From a virus: 64,000 bases of DNA. The DNA is taken from the UHGV virus genome UHGV-0054069; one strand, 5' to 3'. The notes under the pieces are model-generated. The model was not told the DNA's origin, did not search any database, and saw only the letters and a list, made by a program, of their open reading frames with translations. Each line of letters begins with the position of its first letter. Position 1 is the first letter of the stretch. The translations under genes were made by a program, and so were the position numbers. Positions 38,766 to 62,600 of the stretch are shown piece by piece.

Positions 38766-39806
38766 ATGAATCAATATACACTTACAAAGCTCCCAGAAAG
38801 CGTTACACACGTCTTTATTGACGCAGACAGCATTGCTTACAAGGGTGCTTGTGTAGTTGAAAAAGCAAAGTACAAGTATGTGAATAGACTTACCGCTGAA
38901 GAGTCTGATGACTTTGATAGTGCTAAGTTAGCTTCACAATGGTTAGCTGACCAGAGAGTTCTTACAGAGGAACTTGGACTTGACTTTGATGAAGATGAAT
39001 GGGAAAGACAGACTTGGAAGGAAGCCAAGAGCGAAAAAGAAGCTATTATGGCGACTCAGCAGGTTCTTCAAGAATGGCTTAAAGTTGTCGGTAAAGAGCG
39101 TCAATGGATGGGTTACCTGACTGAGAAGGGTGTTCACAAACACAAAGACATTAAAGGTCTTGAACATCAATATCAAGGTAACAGGAAAGATGCGGTGACA
39201 CCTACGCACCTAGTTGCTTGTCGTGAGTATCTTCTGTCACGAACTGAGTTTAAGCTTCTCAAAGGTGGCTTTGAAGCTGACTCAATCGTTATTGCAAAAG
39301 CTGAAAAGATGGGTAAAAAAGCTGCTCTTATGAGTATTGATAAAGACCTTCGTCAAGCTGAAGGGACATATTGTATTGATATGACTTATGAGAAAGCACC
39401 ACTTATCTTTATTGCTGATAATAACGTTGGAGAGATTTGGGATTGCCCTATCAAATCCAAACCAAAAGCTAAGAAGACAGTCGGAGTAGGCTTCAAATTC
39501 CTCTGCTATCAAGCTGTAGCAGGTGATAATGCAGATAACTACTTTGGCCTTAAGGGTGCTGGTAAAGTTGCTGTAATGAACGCTCTGGAAGGTAAAACAA
39601 CCTACAGAGAATGTTTAGATGCTGTTTATGAGTTGTATGCAAAGAAAGACTCTTACACCTATGTGTCGTGGGACGGTCAAACAATTACCAGAACACCTTT
39701 AGAGTTAATGCACCAGCACTTCTGGATTGCATACCAAGAGCGAAATCCAAAGGATGATTTCACGTTTGAAAAATATGGATGGGAGCCTACTATGAATGAA
39801 GATTAA
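38766..39806 (+). CDS. 5'-3' exonuclease / flap endonuclease (FEN family)
   Basis: N-terminal acidic cluster FIDADSIAYKG and H3TH-like motif AGDNADNYFGLKGAGKVAV; start at MNQYTL with GGAGGG RBS. Confidence 0.6.
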   Translation: MNQYTLTKLPESVTHVFIDADSIAYKGACVVEKAKYKYVNRLTAEESDDFDSAKLASQWLADQRVLTEELGLDFDEDEWERQTWKEAKSEKEAIMATQQVLQEWLKVVGKERQWMGYLTEKGVHKHKDIKGLEHQYQGNRKDAVTPTHLVACREYLLSRTEFKLLKGGFEADSIVIAKAEKMGKKAALMSIDKDLRQAEGTYCIDMTYEKAPLIFIADNNVGEIWDCPIKSKPKAKKTVGVGFKFLCYQAVAGDNADNYFGLKGAGKVAVMNALEGKTTYRECLDAVYELYAKKDSYTYVSWDGQTITRTPLELMHQHFWIAYQERNPKDDFTFEKYGWEPTMNED

Positions 39807-40296
39807 AGGTTTCGGTAATTGCCCTGTTTATGGTCATTGGGTATCTTTATGCGGGGAAGTTGACCCAGCTAAACTGTTCGGGTTTGTCTACCTAGTCTAT
39901 TGTAAGAAAACTGGACAGTATTACATTGGTAAAAAGCAGTTCAATAGTATCACTAAGAAGAAGGTTGCTGGAAAGACCAGACGTAAGGTTGTCACCAAAG
40001 AGAGTGACTGGATGGTTTACCAGACTTCTTCTGAGTACATTAAGAAAGATATTGAAGCTTTTGGTATGAAAGAGTTTGACTTCTACATTGTGCAAACCTA
40101 TTATACACGAGGTGGGTTAGTCTATGGAGAAGCAAATCTCCAACATAAGTTCGATGTTATGACAAAAAGGATTGACTCGAAACTCAGACTCTTCTACAAT
40201 GCCAATATTGCAGCTATCAAGTTCCTTACAAAAGAAACTTATGAAGAAGCTGAGAAACGTATTAACAAAATCATGAAACTTAATGAGAGAGAATAA
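39796..40296 (+). CDS. GIY-YIG nuclease family protein (homing endonuclease-like)
   Basis: VYLVY ... YYIGKK motif pair with correct spacing; overlaps exonuclease stop. Confidence 0.5.
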   Translation: MKIKGFGNCPVYGHWVSLCGEVDPAKLFGFVYLVYCKKTGQYYIGKKQFNSITKKKVAGKTRRKVVTKESDWMVYQTSSEYIKKDIEAFGMKEFDFYIVQTYYTRGGLVYGEANLQHKFDVMTKRIDSKLRLFYNANIAAIKFLTKETYEEAEKRINKIMKLNERE

Positions 40297-40510
40297 GATT
40301 ATGTTTAACAAACTTAAGAATGACCACGTAGCTAAAATTGACAGCCATATTGCAGCACTGAAAGATGCAATCGTCAAAGCTAAAGCAGCTACGGAGTCCG
40401 AAATGGAGGCTCTTGAGTCCCAGATTCAGCAACTGATTAACAAACGTGTTGAACTGAAAGGCCGACTGGATTATATTGAGTCTCAGCAGAAACTATTTCA
40501 GGAGGTTTAA
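40283..40510 (+). CDS. hypothetical coiled-coil protein
   Basis: 75 aa ORF. Confidence 0.4.
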   Translation: MRENKIMFNKLKNDHVAKIDSHIAALKDAIVKAKAATESEMEALESQIQQLINKRVELKGRLDYIESQQKLFQEV

Positions 40511-41265
40511 TGTTTAATTCCAGAGAATCCGTTTTAACTTGGAATCAGCGTTGTGGTAATACCCCGTTGACTCCTTATACACATGATTACTGGTCTTCAA
40601 TGCGTAGTCAAGCACTTTGCATGTTAGAAGAAGCCAAAGAGCTTTTGAAAGCGGTTGATGAAAAAGACCCTATTGAGGCTCTTGATGCTCAGGCAGATTT
40701 ACAGTATGTTCTTGATGGACTGATTTACCTTTCACAGCATGACCATGACGGAGCTATGAAAGCAGTCTGTGAGAATAACAACCTGAAGTATACTGATAAC
40801 TACGAAGAAGCTTTGAAGCGTCTTGCAGATATCGAGAAACGTACTGGTGATGAATGTCGTGTACGTGCTTCAATGATTGACGGAAAAGAATGGTACGCCA
40901 TTGTCCGTGAATCTGATAAGAAGATTATGAAGCAGTCTAATCTTCCTAAAGTACAGCTTGCAGAGTTCATCGCGGAACTTGAAAGCAAAGAATTGTTCGT
41001 GGTAACATCTGACACATGCGTTATCTGTAAAGGTCTTGTAGGAAGCTTAAAAGACCTTGGATTGAGTGACTTCACTGAAGTTCGACCAATCAGTTCAAAA
41101 GCAGACAAAGACTTCTGCAAAGAAAACGGATTATGGCTTGCAGATATTGTTTACTATGACGGTGAGAAGTTCCATGTGACCTCATACCCGAAACTGAACT
41201 ATGATGCAAATAACCTGAAGAATTGGTTAAAAGGGGTTGGTTATAATGGATTCACAGAACATTAA
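40510..41265 (+). CDS. hypothetical protein; N-terminal MazG-like all-alpha NTP pyrophosphohydrolase-like region (tentative)
   Basis: N-terminal helical segment with EE..E..D / EALDAQADLQYVLDGL pattern; C-terminal half unknown with CVIC motif. Confidence 0.35.
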   Translation: MFNSRESVLTWNQRCGNTPLTPYTHDYWSSMRSQALCMLEEAKELLKAVDEKDPIEALDAQADLQYVLDGLIYLSQHDHDGAMKAVCENNNLKYTDNYEEALKRLADIEKRTGDECRVRASMIDGKEWYAIVRESDKKIMKQSNLPKVQLAEFIAELESKELFVVTSDTCVICKGLVGSLKDLGLSDFTEVRPISSKADKDFCKENGLWLADIVYYDGEKFHVTSYPKLNYDANNLKNWLKGVGYNGFTEH

Positions 41266-50535: not shown

Positions 50536-50565
50536 AGGGAACTGTAAAAGGTTCCCTTTTTATTT
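50536..50565 (+). terminator. rho-independent terminator
   Basis: GGGAAC-loop-GTTCCC stem followed by TTTTTATTTT. Confidence 0.55.
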
Positions 50566-50575
50566 TGGAGAAATC

Positions 50576-51091
50576 ATGTACTACGCAAACCTTAAGCGTG
50601 CTGCTGCAATGTCTGTTTTACGTCTTGATTTTGATGAACGTCAAGAGTTCATTGAATCTCACCAATATGACCCTTCAAACTCTAATCACATGGTTCTTTG
50701 GAATCGTGGAAAGTACCGTGATAGCTCCCTCTTTGCATATTATCCTCACTACACTATTGATAACCTTTATGAGTACTGTGTTGTAAAGAACACTATAACA
50801 ACTCTTAACAAGCTTTGCCGTTACTCTGGTAAGCAATCTTTCACATTAGGCCACCATAAGCCCGTTACAAAGGGTGGGGAGCACCATTGCTCTAACTGGT
50901 TTATCCAGACTCAACTTGATAACCAGAAGCAAGGAGAGAAGCTTCTAGAAGCCCCTAAGATGACCTATGCAGAACAAAAAGAATATATTAAAAATAATAT
51001 GCCACCAATGCTTGACAAGGAATATGCAGTTCTGGCAATATCTCTCTTGTTGAAGTTCGAGACTGTTTATGAGGCGACTTATAATGGCTAG
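50576..51091 (+). CDS. HNH endonuclease-like protein
   Basis: HNH-type core LGHHKPVTKGGEHHCSNWFIQTQLDNQKQGEK (HH...GG...N...N). Confidence 0.5.
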   Translation: MYYANLKRAAAMSVLRLDFDERQEFIESHQYDPSNSNHMVLWNRGKYRDSSLFAYYPHYTIDNLYEYCVVKNTITTLNKLCRYSGKQSFTLGHHKPVTKGGEHHCSNWFIQTQLDNQKQGEKLLEAPKMTYAEQKEYIKNNMPPMLDKEYAVLAISLLLKFETVYEATYNG

Positions 51092-51362
51092 AGAACAATG
51101 GGAAATCAAAGAACTTATTAGTGAAGGTGGTAACGGTTGTGAAATGTACATGATACGTGGTCACGTTCCAGATGCCCTTGCACTTGAGATGGTAGACCAT
51201 CAATCTAATGGCTACTACAAAGAGTTTGGAGAGCCAAACATTGAACGCACTTGGACAAAACCAGTTCCAGACGGTACAGGTAACTGTTTAGTGATTTATC
51301 ATACTGTAGACCCAAAGAAATGCAAAACAGCTATGGCTGTAACCTTCGTAACTTTTGATTGA
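51069..51362 (+). CDS. hypothetical protein
   Basis: 97 aa ORF; alternative start at 51084. Confidence 0.4.
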   Translation: MRRLIMAREQWEIKELISEGGNGCEMYMIRGHVPDALALEMVDHQSNGYYKEFGEPNIERTWTKPVPDGTGNCLVIYHTVDPKKCKTAMAVTFVTFD

Positions 51363-51372
51363 GAGAAATATT

Positions 51373-52254
51373 ATGAAAACTATTATTAGTGTACTATTAC
51401 ACTCACGTAAAAAAGGTGCTCACCAAGAAGAGTTCAACATTATCCAGTTTCCGTCTGGAGAAATTGGTGGTAACTTCTCAGAAGACCTAGTAGCCTATGC
51501 TGAACAGAATGCTTCCCAGATTGAGAATGTAATCCTCACTGTACAGGGTTACGACAAAGATACTCTGTTTGCTTTAGCTCTGGCGAAAGAAGCTATTGAC
51601 AAACTAATTCCTCAGAAATCAACTATGAAGACTGCTGTATTTGGCTTCTTACCAAATGCTCGTTATGACCGTCACATGTTTAAAGGTGATGCAGCAGCAT
51701 TGAAAGTCTTTGCAAATCTGGTAAATGCTATGGAGTTTGATGCAGTATGTGCTTTAGATACCCACAGCAACGTAGCAGAGAACTTGTTTAAGTGCTTCCA
51801 TAACCTGCCTCAGAAAGAAGCAGCAGTACACTTTGCAAGTGACCCACGTATTGATTTCTTAGTGGCTCCAGATGCAGGTGCAGCCAAGAAGACTGAAGAG
51901 GCTGCTAAAGAGGTTGATAAGCCATATATCACAATGGCTAAGATTCGTAATCTGAAAACTGGTGAAATCACTGGTATGCGAATCCTTGATGATGTAGACT
52001 TAACTGGTAAAGCTGTCATGATTCTCGATGATATCTGTGATGGTGGTCGTACCTTTGTAGAAGCTGCAAAACATCTTCGTGAAGCTGGTGCAAGCCGTGT
52101 AGAACTTTATGTAACTCATGGGATTTTCTCAAAAGGTGTTGAAAATCTTCTTGACAATGGCATTGACCATATCTACACTACAAACTCGCTAGGGGATGCT
52201 GAAGACCGTGGTCTGAATCAGTTCTCACAAGTAACTGTAGCAAACATTGAGTAA
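51373..52254 (+). CDS. prs: ribose-phosphate pyrophosphokinase (PRPP synthetase)
   Basis: PRPP-binding PRTase motif ILDDICDGGRT; about 294 aa; start at MKTIIS. Confidence 0.7.
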   Translation: MKTIISVLLHSRKKGAHQEEFNIIQFPSGEIGGNFSEDLVAYAEQNASQIENVILTVQGYDKDTLFALALAKEAIDKLIPQKSTMKTAVFGFLPNARYDRHMFKGDAAALKVFANLVNAMEFDAVCALDTHSNVAENLFKCFHNLPQKEAAVHFASDPRIDFLVAPDAGAAKKTEEAAKEVDKPYITMAKIRNLKTGEITGMRILDDVDLTGKAVMILDDICDGGRTFVEAAKHLREAGASRVELYVTHGIFSKGVENLLDNGIDHIYTTNSLGDAEDRGLNQFSQVTVANIE

Positions 52255-52302
52255 TAAACTTTGAAGGGGCTGAAAAGCCCCACTATTGAGAGAGATAAAA
52301 TT

Positions 52303-54129
52303 ATGTCTAAATCAGTTTATGCAGTACCAGCAGGTCTTAATGCGGATGCTTACAAAGCTGGCCATATCTACCAGTACCCAAGTGCTACACAGTATCTGAT
52401 GCTAAATCTTACACCTCGTGGTGATAAGTGGTTTAACACTCCACTTGATATTGACGGTGTAGTTGCTTTTGGTATTCAACGTTTCGTTAAAGATTACTTA
52501 GTAGACCACTGGAATGCTACCTTCTTTGAACGAGATAAGAAAGAAGTTGTTGACGAAATCTTAGAAATCATGAACGGTGTTCTCGGTGCAGATGCGATTG
52601 GTCGTGAGCATTGGGAAGAACTTCACGATTTAGGCTATCTGCCAGTCGAAGTCTACTCTGTAGAAGAGGGTACAGTGGTTCCAATGCGTGTTCCAATGAT
52701 TATCTTCAAGAATACTGTAGAGGGCTTCCATTGGGTAGCTGGATATCTGGAAGATGCTTTCTCTGCTGAAATTTGGAAAGCTTCTACGATTGCCACTATT
52801 GCATTACACTACAAACGTATCTGTAAGCAATGGGCTGATGTAACCTGTGATAATGACTTCCATTTACCTTGGCAGTGTCATGATTTTGCAATGCGTGGTA
52901 TGTCAGGCTTTACAGATGATGCTTTTAACGCTGTAGGTCACCTGACAAGCTTTAAAGGTACTGACAGCTTCCCTGCTGTCTACACTGCTAAACGTGCTTA
53001 TGGTCAGTTTATGGAAGTAAGTGATATCGGCAACTCTGTACCAGCTACTGAACACTCTGTGATGTGCGCAAACATTTCATGGAATATGAAAGACTTGTCA
53101 GAGGAAGATATTCATTCACAGTACATCATGCAGTCTGATAGCTTGCTGGATGCAAAACGTTGGCGTGGTGAGGTTAAAACCTTTGAGCATTTACTGGTAG
53201 ACGTATATCCAACTGGTATTGCAAGTGTTGTTTCAGATACTTACAACTTCTGGCGTACTATTACAGAGATTCTCCCAGAACTCCGTGAAGTTATCCTGAA
53301 GCGTGAAGGTAAACTGGTAATACGTCCAGACTCTGGAGACCCCATTCACATTGTTGCTGGTTATCGTGCTGTTGAGTGGGAAAATGCCAAGAGTATGTTC
53401 TACAAACATATGAAAGAAATTGCACCGAACAATGATAAACTCCTGAATCTTATTCAGTATTGTGAGTTGCAGGATATGGGTTATGGGTTTGCTGCATGGC
53501 TTATCTCTGAAGGTTATGAGTTAGTTGTTGATAAAGAAGATTTTGAAACTGCTGAAACAGTTAACTTGAAAGATTTTAATAAGACCGGAAATATTGTTGT
53601 TAAGCGTATGCTGACAGCAGAGATTGATGGGGCTATCCCAACTCTCTACAACATCTTTGGTGGTCGTGTGAACAGTAAAGGTTACAAAGTACTGGATGAG
53701 CACATCGGTTTAATCTATGGTGATTCTATCACCCTTGAGCGAGCTAATGAGATTCTTGGTCGTCTTGCTGACAAAGGTTTTGCAAGCTCTAACGTGGTCT
53801 TTGGTGTTGGCTCATACACTTACCAGTACCTGACTCGTGATACCTTTGCATTTGCTGTCAAGGCTACTCTTGCTCAGATGGACGGTGAAGAAATCATGCT
53901 GGCAAAAGACCCTAAAACTGACAGTGGTCTTAAGAAGTCTGCTTTTGGTGGTGTAGTTCCTATGTGTGACGGTGATAAACTGGAAGCTGTAGACGGCTTT
54001 GGCTTTGCAGAGTTTGAAGGTGTACTGGATAATCCAGAATGTGCTTTGAAGTTGGTGTTTAGCAACTCTCAACCATATGGTTATGTAAACCTTTGTGATG
54101 TTCGAAATAACATTGACAAACAACTCTAA
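52303..54129 (+). CDS. nadV: nicotinamide phosphoribosyltransferase (NadV/NAMPT-like)
   Basis: NAMPT-type motifs IRPDSGDP and LIYGDSI; start at MSKSVYA (track start 52261 is TTG inside a hairpin). Confidence 0.8.
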   Translation: MSKSVYAVPAGLNADAYKAGHIYQYPSATQYLMLNLTPRGDKWFNTPLDIDGVVAFGIQRFVKDYLVDHWNATFFERDKKEVVDEILEIMNGVLGADAIGREHWEELHDLGYLPVEVYSVEEGTVVPMRVPMIIFKNTVEGFHWVAGYLEDAFSAEIWKASTIATIALHYKRICKQWADVTCDNDFHLPWQCHDFAMRGMSGFTDDAFNAVGHLTSFKGTDSFPAVYTAKRAYGQFMEVSDIGNSVPATEHSVMCANISWNMKDLSEEDIHSQYIMQSDSLLDAKRWRGEVKTFEHLLVDVYPTGIASVVSDTYNFWRTITEILPELREVILKREGKLVIRPDSGDPIHIVAGYRAVEWENAKSMFYKHMKEIAPNNDKLLNLIQYCELQDMGYGFAAWLISEGYELVVDKEDFETAETVNLKDFNKTGNIVVKRMLTAEIDGAIPTLYNIFGGRVNSKGYKVLDEHIGLIYGDSITLERANEILGRLADKGFASSNVVFGVGSYTYQYLTRDTFAFAVKATLAQMDGEEIMLAKDPKTDSGLKKSAFGGVVPMCDGDKLEAVDGFGFAEFEGVLDNPECALKLVFSNSQPYGYVNLCDVRNNIDKQL

Positions 54130-54141
54130 CTGAGTATTATA

Positions 54142-54166
54142 AGAGGCTCCTACGGGAGCCTTTTTA
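54142..54166 (+). terminator. rho-independent terminator
   Basis: GAGGCTCC-TACG-GGAGCC followed by TTTTT. Confidence 0.65.
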
Positions 54167-54182: not shown

Positions 54183-54518
54183 ATGAAAATTAAGCAGATG
54201 AATATCAACCTTATCTTAGAAGAACGTTGGGAAAACATCAAATGTACTGAAGATGGTTATAAGTTTGTTAACAAGATTATGCAGGAAGCTCAGACTCAAC
54301 TTGCTTCTGAGATTCATACAACGATTACTTTGAAGGTTTACATCAAAGGTCTTCCACAAAATCACCAAGAAGCCCTTGACCTGTTCTGTGAACACTTCTA
54401 TAATCCGAACAAAAGAATCCTTGAAGATAATTTTGCAGTCTCTTCAAGCATCGTTCATGACAGAAGCTTTATCCTGTTCAAAACTGTAGGAGAGAATGTA
54501 TGCAAGGTTATTGGTTAG
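54183..54518 (+). CDS. hypothetical protein
   Basis: 111 aa ORF. Confidence 0.4.
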   Translation: MKIKQMNINLILEERWENIKCTEDGYKFVNKIMQEAQTQLASEIHTTITLKVYIKGLPQNHQEALDLFCEHFYNPNKRILEDNFAVSSSIVHDRSFILFKTVGENVCKVIG

Positions 54519-61805: not shown

Positions 61806-62600
61806 ATGGGCATTGTAAAAATCATTAAAGGTGATATCTTTGAAGCCTTTGATAACCAGAAGTTTGATATCATTGGTCACGGATGCAACTGCATGAACTT
61901 GATGGGTGCAGGGATTGCAGCGACGATTGCAAAACGTTATCCAAAAGCTTATGAGACTGACGCTGAAGTTTATGAGACAGTTGGTGGTGAGAACCATAAA
62001 CCTGTACATCTTATGCTTGGCAATATCTCTGTAGCACGTTTCAAGCAGGGTCGAATTGCTAACCTATACACTCAGGTTATCACTGGTAAAGATGCACGTT
62101 ACAATGCCTTAGAAGCAGCTTTGCAGCGTCTTAATAACTACTGCAAAGTAAACCAGCTTAAGAAGGTTGGTCTTCCAATGATTTGTGCAGGGATTGGTGG
62201 TTTGGATATCTTTGCAGTTACTTCAATCATTAACCAGACAATGAAAGATGTAGACGTTTACCTTTATGTCTATGAAGAAACAATGCACAGACGACTAACC
62301 AATAACATAGTTGGTTGGAACAACTACAGTGAACCTCAACACTTTGATGGTGTCGCAGTTGTGAAGGATAATCAAGTTACACTACGGGTAAAACGGAAGG
62401 GTAAGGTGCATAAAAGTAACCCTCCGGTTGAGAAGTACTCTCTGAGTAACGCTCAAGTTACCCACCCGTTACACGACCACTGCTTGAGAGCAGTAACATT
62501 TGGGGACAATGCAAGTGTTTACCTTCTTGCACAAGACCATGAAGAAGCTGATAAGATTATCTCTGATAAACGTTTTAGCTTTGTTGAAGCACGTAACTAA
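61806..62600 (+). CDS. macrodomain protein (TARG1/DarG-like ADP-ribose hydrolase fold) with unknown C-terminal domain
   Basis: KGDIF, HGCNCMNLMGAGIA, catalytic-position Lys (RFKQG) and Asp in PMICAGIGGLD align with the TARG1 macrodomain pattern; 264 aa. Confidence 0.7.
   Translation: MGIVKIIKGDIFEAFDNQKFDIIGHGCNCMNLMGAGIAATIAKRYPKAYETDAEVYETVGGENHKPVHLMLGNISVARFKQGRIANLYTQVITGKDARYNALEAALQRLNNYCKVNQLKKVGLPMICAGIGGLDIFAVTSIINQTMKDVDVYLYVYEETMHRRLTNNIVGWNNYSEPQHFDGVAVVKDNQVTLRVKRKGKVHKSNPPVEKYSLSNAQVTHPLHDHCLRAVTFGDNASVYLLAQDHEEADKIISDKRFSFVEARN

Follow-up and report, generated by a model that had tools for sequence, protein, structure and literature searches.

Two adjacent genes at positions 51,373-54,129 of the virus genome UHGV-0054069 (analysed as one stretch of 64,000 nucleotides, hereafter the window) very probably work together as NARP1, the nicotinamide adenine dinucleotide (NAD+) reconstitution pathway 1. 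The pair is a member of an already known and experimentally characterised system, the founding example of which consists of genes 79-80 of Bas63 (the BASEL phage JohannRWettstein, a Felixounavirus; Osterman et al., bioRxiv 10.1101/2024.02.11.579819). An earlier note on this DNA had recognised adjacent Prs-like and NAMPT-like genes here and suggested that they restore NAD+ in the face of NAD+-depleting defences. Profile searches confirm the coordinates and support the family membership of both products far beyond chance, and the suggested role is also the most likely one given the orthology with Bas63. The chemistry proposed in that note does not hold up in the same way: it had nicotinamide converted to nicotinamide mononucleotide (NMN) with phosphoribosyl pyrophosphate (PRPP), whereas Bas63-type chemistry runs from ADP-ribose pyrophosphate (ADPR-PP) to NAD+ directly. 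Below, the first open reading frame (ORF A) is called adps and the second (ORF B) namat.

The comparison with the Bas63 genome (MZ501086) carries most of the argument. ORF A shares 82% identity with bas63_0079, free of gaps over all 293 amino acids (aa); for ORF B and bas63_0080 the figure is 74%, likewise over the full length. Gene order and neighbours are the same as well: in the window the genes run NrdD, NrdG, several small ORFs, Adps, Namat, two small ORFs, rIIA and rIIB, the difference being that Bas63 has three small ORFs between Namat and rIIA. In Bas63 the two genes carry the annotations Prs and NAMPT, and their deletion makes the phage sensitive to SIR2-HerA (bioRxiv 10.1101/2024.02.11.579819), which means that the pair in the window is orthologous and syntenic to genes with a demonstrated counter-defence phenotype. 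Both phages belong to the subfamily Ounavirinae. Based on a 3.5-kb query around the pair and the taxonomy of its best match, the window derives from a lytic, Felix O1-like phage: the query matches Shigella phage ESh22 (Ounavirinae, genus Mooglevirus) at 99.7% identity and ESh21 at 99.5%, followed by many further Shigella, Escherichia and Citrobacter phages at 81-88% and by a band of 60-80% that mostly holds Escherichia and Salmonella Felix O1-like phages. The window phage is therefore a Mooglevirus-type relative of ESh22, where Bas63 is a Felixounavirus.

The profile matches of ORF A are those of the Prs family (PF14572 at 1.1e-10, PF00156 at 1.5e-10, TIGR01251 at 4.7e-37 with 127 bits, and phrog_619 at 7e-98). 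Nonetheless, all NCBIfam Prs equivalog models score it at 50-106 bits, far below their cut-offs of 296-536, and its identity to the Adps of Vibrio phage ICP1 is 30%, against 23% to E. coli Prs. We mapped the defining residues by aligning ORF A with the sequence of ICP1 Adps, for which both activity and structures have been published (PMC13586617). ICP1 residues R87, H121, D161, K185, D212, D213 and D216 correspond to R97, H131, D167, K190, D219, D220 and D223 in the window and are all conserved, including the lysine that is catalytic in ICP1 (Lys185; PMC13586617); F221 is retained too, as F228. At the other end of the protein, the C-terminal alpha11-alpha12 module of Prs is missing, just as in ICP1 and other Adps proteins: in the alignment the segment RRISNEESISAMFEH of E. 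coli Prs lies beyond the end of ORF A. Loss of this module has been described as a signature of the Adps family.

ORF B matches PF04095 (1.8e-29), PF18127 (1.4e-5), NF006629 (6e-138) and phrog_448 (1e-194). Its best solved structures by sequence are 9W5W and 9W5X at 4e-126, which are the crystal structures of SPbetaL1 Namat (PMC12774641), whereas true NAMPTs reach only 1e-39 to 1e-49. The AlphaFold2 model (pLDDT 91.6) gives the same ranking at the level of the fold, with the Namat structures as best matches (TMt 0.94), then H. ducreyi NadV and then mammalian NAMPT. Identity to SPbetaL1 Namat, a protein of 491 aa, is about 47% over 472 aligned residues. The NAMPT-like catalytic core (D13, Y15, F189, R192, D215, H245, R306 and D308 in SPbetaL1) is identical throughout, and all NAD+-contacting positions of SPbetaL1 Namat hold either the same or a conservatively exchanged residue in the window. 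This contact set comprises D15, Y17, F195, R198, D221, H251, R341, D343, G473, D474, G503, S504, Y505, Y509, T511, R512 and D513, together with K42-W43 in the clamp loop; R341 is the counterpart of SPbetaL1 R306, mutation of which abolishes activity. Overall, folds and catalytic residues are shared with SPbetaL1 Namat and ICP1 Adps, and the contacts to NAD+ and ADP-ribose (ADPR) are largely conserved.

What sets a Namat apart from a NAMPT is the clamp. The selectivity-clamp loop (SCL) supplies the residue that stacks on the adenine, which is either an Arg or a Lys/Tyr followed by a stacking residue, and a Bas63-type loop with Lys-Trp has been described (PMC12774641). In our alignment K42-W43 reproduces the K-W arrangement of Bas63, where SPbetaL1 has Arg40 as the stacking element of the loop; the pair agrees with the stacking rule, and adenine stacking by these residues is the probable outcome. 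The selectivity-clamp helix (SCH) likewise carries the GSYTYQY-x-TRD motif that is found in Bas63. Its aromatics are absent in the two true NAMPTs that we aligned, which read GGALLQKVDRD (Xcc) and GAQTYQRNTRD (H. ducreyi NadV).

Judged by the published work on Bas63, SPbetaL1 and ICP1, the pair would act once SIR2-HerA, DSR1/2, type I Thoeris or SEFIR has cleaved NAD+ to ADP-ribose and nicotinamide. Adps would then pyrophosphorylate ADP-ribose at its distal ribose, with the beta-gamma pyrophosphate of ATP as the transferred group, giving ADPR-PP. Namat, with an entrance clamp expected to recognise the adenine of this intermediate, would swap the pyrophosphate for nicotinamide and so produce NAD+ in one step, involving neither an NMN intermediate nor an NMN adenylyltransferase (NMNAT). 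The earlier note was right that no NMNAT is recognisable here but took the pathway to be incomplete for that reason; NARP1 yields NAD+ directly, and therefore a missing NMNAT would be no gap and the pathway would be complete as it stands.

To cover such partner genes, chosen non-structural ORFs at 23.3-64 kb of the window were joined as pseudo-proteins and searched against Pfam, and a second Pfam search took in the ten largest ORFs that ESh22 encodes beyond the stretch shared with the window. Neither of these sets (the scan did not extend to the virion module at 1-23.3 kb) yielded an NMNAT (CTP_transf_like) or Nudix gene, nor did they yield PnuC or NadR, which as a PnuC-like transporter plus a NadR-like enzyme make up NARP3 (PMC13464706). 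The suggestion that an NMNAT or Nudix gene lies elsewhere in the genome thus finds no support among the ORFs covered.

This bears directly on a classical salvage route, in which Prs would make PRPP, NAMPT would use it to make NMN from nicotinamide, and the synthesis would be finished by a host enzyme (NadR or PncC) or by a phage NMNAT that has escaped notice (NARP2-like, with the last step outsourced). The family names given by Pfam and NCBIfam agree with such a route, and both NARP2 (NadV/NAMPT plus the NMNAT-Nudix protein NatV, for example in Vibrio phage KVP40) and the cellular combination of Prs and NAMPT have homologous folds and end in the same product, NAD+. They differ in passing through PRPP and NMN and in requiring an NMNAT, and true NAMPTs are without the aromatic clamp motif that ORF B possesses. 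ORF A, in turn, stays below every Prs equivalog cut-off and is without the C-terminal regulatory module of Prs. The published experiments point the same way. The effect of the Bas63 genes is independent of PncC and NadR, the host enzymes that take NMN to NAD+, and persists in a host without pncC and nadR, which also speaks against the host-supplied partner that the earlier note had considered; the intermediate that accumulates in Bas63-infected cells is ADPR-PP rather than NMN, and it is seen only with a defence system present (bioRxiv 10.1101/2024.02.11.579819). Purified SPbetaL1 Adps pyrophosphorylates ADP-ribose and gives no product from ribose-5-phosphate, SPbetaL1 Namat converts ADPR-PP and nicotinamide to NAD+, and Namat offered PRPP and ADPR-PP together makes NAD+ as its sole product (bioRxiv 10.1101/2024.02.11.579819). 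Given these observations, we consider the classical route improbable for the window pair.

Still less probable, in our view, is a housekeeping function in which the Prs-like enzyme boosts PRPP for phage nucleotides and the NAMPT-like enzyme tops up NAD+, independently of immunity. It would suit the surroundings of the pair, a nucleotide-metabolism block with NrdA, NrdB, NrdD, NrdG, thymidylate synthase, dihydrofolate reductase and dNMP kinase. The biochemical objections are nonetheless the same as those to classical salvage, the dependence of ADPR-PP on a defence system in Bas63 does not fit an immunity-independent supply, and the reported phenotype of the deletion comes from a defence-bearing host.

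A number of observations count against the assignment to NARP1. Namat enzymes retain some PRPP-to-NMN activity in vitro, and because of this residual activity a minor NMN route may exist alongside NARP1; moreover, the studies with purified enzymes concern the more distant proteins of SPbetaL1 and ICP1, as the Bas63 protein purified poorly (bioRxiv 10.1101/2024.02.11.579819). In the window itself, the PP loop of Adps reads CDGGRT where ICP1 has CDGAAS, and two aromatic contacts of ICP1 Adps are changed (F92 to M102 and F223 to E230). Finally, Namat contains two insertions that are absent from SPbetaL1 Namat. The coordinates of all features are provided in Table 1.

Table 1. Features of the NARP1 pair, its transcription unit and the distal Macro-domain gene, in positions of the window.
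Feature	Position	Strand	Basis or remark
Intrinsic-terminator-like hairpin, similar to the one at 54141..54164	50536-50557		upstream of four-gene unit
171-aa ORF, weak HNH similarity	50576-51091	+	apparently co-transcribed with adps and namat
97-aa ORF	51084-51362	+	apparently co-transcribed with adps and namat
adps, ADP-ribose pyrophosphate synthetase (Prs-like), 293 aa	51373..52254	+	profiles and Bas63 orthology
Adps Lys190, equivalent of ICP1 Adps catalytic Lys185	51940..51942	+	alignment mapping
Adps PP loop, aa 222-227, CDGGRT	52036..52053	+	ICP1 counterpart similar, not identical
GC-rich hairpin GGGGCT-GAAA-AGCCCC, without T-run	52266..52281	+	between adps and namat; read from sequence
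namat, nicotinamide ADP-ribose transferase (NAMPT-like), 608 aa	52303..54129	+	structure matches and Bas63 orthology
Namat selectivity-clamp loop (SCL), aa 37-52, TPRGDKWFNTPLDIDG, with Lys42-Trp43 stacking pair	52411..52458	+	
Namat catalytic His251 (SPbetaL1 His245), in ATEHSVM	53053..53055	+	alignment
Namat insertion 1, aa 258-289, 32 aa	53074..53169	+	modelled helical, pLDDT 72-82
Namat insertion 2, aa 355-442, 88 aa, compact alpha/beta subdomain	53365..53628	+	model
Namat selectivity-clamp helix (SCH) motif GSYTYQYLTRD, aa 503-513	53809..53841	+	
Intrinsic-terminator-like hairpin, 10 pairs plus T-run	54141..54164	+	12 nt past namat stop
Poa1p-like Macro-domain protein, 264 aa, candidate unlinked Adpp-like ADPR-1''-phosphate phosphatase	61806..62600	+	

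The insertions account for the unusual length of ORF B. With 608 aa it is indeed longer than solved NAMPT/Namat chains (477-503 aa), as had been pointed out before, but the extra terminal domain that was expected from this is not what we find: relative to SPbetaL1 Namat the additions are 4 residues in the clamp loop and the two internal insertions, and none is terminal. Both insertions are common to all Felix O1-like Namats, Bas63 included. Insertion 1 is shorter in Bas63 (18 aa) and is reduced to 3 aa in SPbetaL1. For the model of insertion 2 no recognisable structural relative was detected, and its sequence is only 42% identical to the Bas63 counterpart. Non-synonymous sites in this insertion evolve about four times faster than those in the enzyme core, while the ratio of non-synonymous to synonymous substitution rates (dN/dS) is nevertheless about 0.2. 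Rather than neutral decoration, the fast-evolving subdomain might be a module for interaction or regulation that is specific to the lineage.

Homologues of ORF B are also present on bacterial chromosomes (495-497 aa, 44-47% identity) in Klebsiella, Phytobacter, Kosakonia, Kluyvera and Erwinia. The Namat-type motif GS[YF]TYQYNTRD occurs in 4/4 of the chromosomal homologues that were aligned, and as far as can be judged from sequence these may be bacterial copies of NARP1 rather than NAMPTs.

Both genes of the pair lie on the plus strand, separated by 48 nt, and both ATG starts (51373 and 52303) are preceded by a GAGAG-type Shine-Dalgarno sequence; for ORF A an alternative TTG start at 51355 is less likely. 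Between the two terminator-like hairpins lie four tightly packed genes, namely the 171-aa ORF, the 97-aa ORF, adps and namat, and because these sites stand on either side, 50576-54129 looks like one four-gene transcript. The GC-rich hairpin between adps and namat could be an element for RNA stability or processing. A near-consensus sigma-70-like promoter (TTGACA, 16 nt, TATTAT) is seen within 54113-54164 (+); it overlaps the last codons of namat and leads immediately into the strong terminator-like hairpin, the next gene starting at 54183.

The two small ORFs at the head of this unit were considered as NARP1 accessories and rejected: the 97-aa ORF occurs in Felix O1-like phages only, and homologues of the 171-aa ORF also occur in Stephanstirmvirinae, where they stand beside a helicase and not beside NARP1. 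More generally, the small ORFs flanking the pair belong only to PHROGs of unknown function, and Pfam and PHROG searches gave no match among them to Macro/Adpp or RyR/RyDEP accessories. While checking the 171-aa ORF we came across the unrelated Klebsiella phage KP13-26, in which nadR and pnuC lie close together, the layout of NARP3.

Further upstream, nrdD of the window phage (46068-48212, +) is one uninterrupted ORF of 714 aa, whereas the Bas63 gene is interrupted by a homing-endonuclease element and annotated as two joined pieces that enclose the endonuclease gene. The replication and nucleotide-metabolism block of the window also holds an ORF resembling SegE-type GIY-YIG homing endonucleases (39796-40296, +; PF19835, 7e-26) and a MazG/PRA-PH-like pyrophosphohydrolase ORF (40510-41265, +; PF01503, 6e-6).

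A gene further downstream deserves separate discussion. The RES-domain defence aRES turns NAD+ into ADPR-1''-phosphate, which NARP1 is unable to use, and some phages add the Poa1p-like Macro phosphatase Adpp to the operon, a combination known as NARP1-AP (10.64898/2026.01.28.702374). Known examples with the order Adps-Adpp-Namat include Vibrio phage Gary, and NARP1-AP is also seen in AG74 and Pseudomonas phage B55. In the window no Macro-domain gene (PF01661, PF14519 or PF20016) is present within two genes of the pair; the only one is located 7.7 kb and about 15 genes downstream, outside the operon. Its product matches PF01661 with 28.5 bits (cut-off 22) and the 'phosphatase' family phrog_335 at 5e-96, its best solved structures are those of Poa1p (6LFQ/6LFU, 7e-5), and it is 65% identical to its orthologue bas63_0095. 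It is homologous to the operon-encoded proteins, with 27% identity (E 2e-15) to the Macro gene product from the Adps-Macro-Namat operon of Vibrio phage AG74 and 32.7% to the one encoded after Namat in Pseudomonas phage B55, and shares with them the motif H-x-C-N-C ... G-x-G-I-A; it differs in being extended at the C-terminus by about 100 aa. The published census of NARP1-AP was limited to two genes either side of NARP1 (10.64898/2026.01.28.702374), and therefore a Macro gene at this distance would have been missed.

It might be argued from these likenesses that Felix O1-like phages run an unlinked NARP1-AP, in which the Macro protein would release ADP-ribose from ADPR-1''-phosphate by dephosphorylation and so feed Adps and Namat. 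We regard this as a tentative idea that is rather unlikely to be correct. The same Macro family is found in 2,855 phage records, T4-like phages included, and NARP1 is not known from T4-like phages. Removal of ADP-ribosylation from proteins or nucleic acids, hydrolysis of O-acetyl-ADPR and RNA repair are as plausible as roles for this protein. If the idea were true, the unlinked NARP1-AP would let Felix O1-like phages also beat aRES, which plain NARP1 cannot.

Summarizing, the pair is an ordinary member of a system that was already known, and the result leaves the knowledge of NARP1 itself unchanged. It does correct a common mis-annotation: deposited records label such genes 'ribose-phosphate pyrophosphokinase' and 'nicotinamide phosphoribosyltransferase', names that make the pathway look incomplete. 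Read as NARP1, the pair would be a self-contained two-enzyme system for rebuilding NAD+ and a known anti-defence determinant. For phage therapy and the host range of Felix O1-like phages of Shigella and E. coli, the prediction is resistance to NAD+ depletion of the SIR2, TIR, DSR and SEFIR types; it extends to aRES only if the missing phosphatase step is provided by the distal Macro protein.

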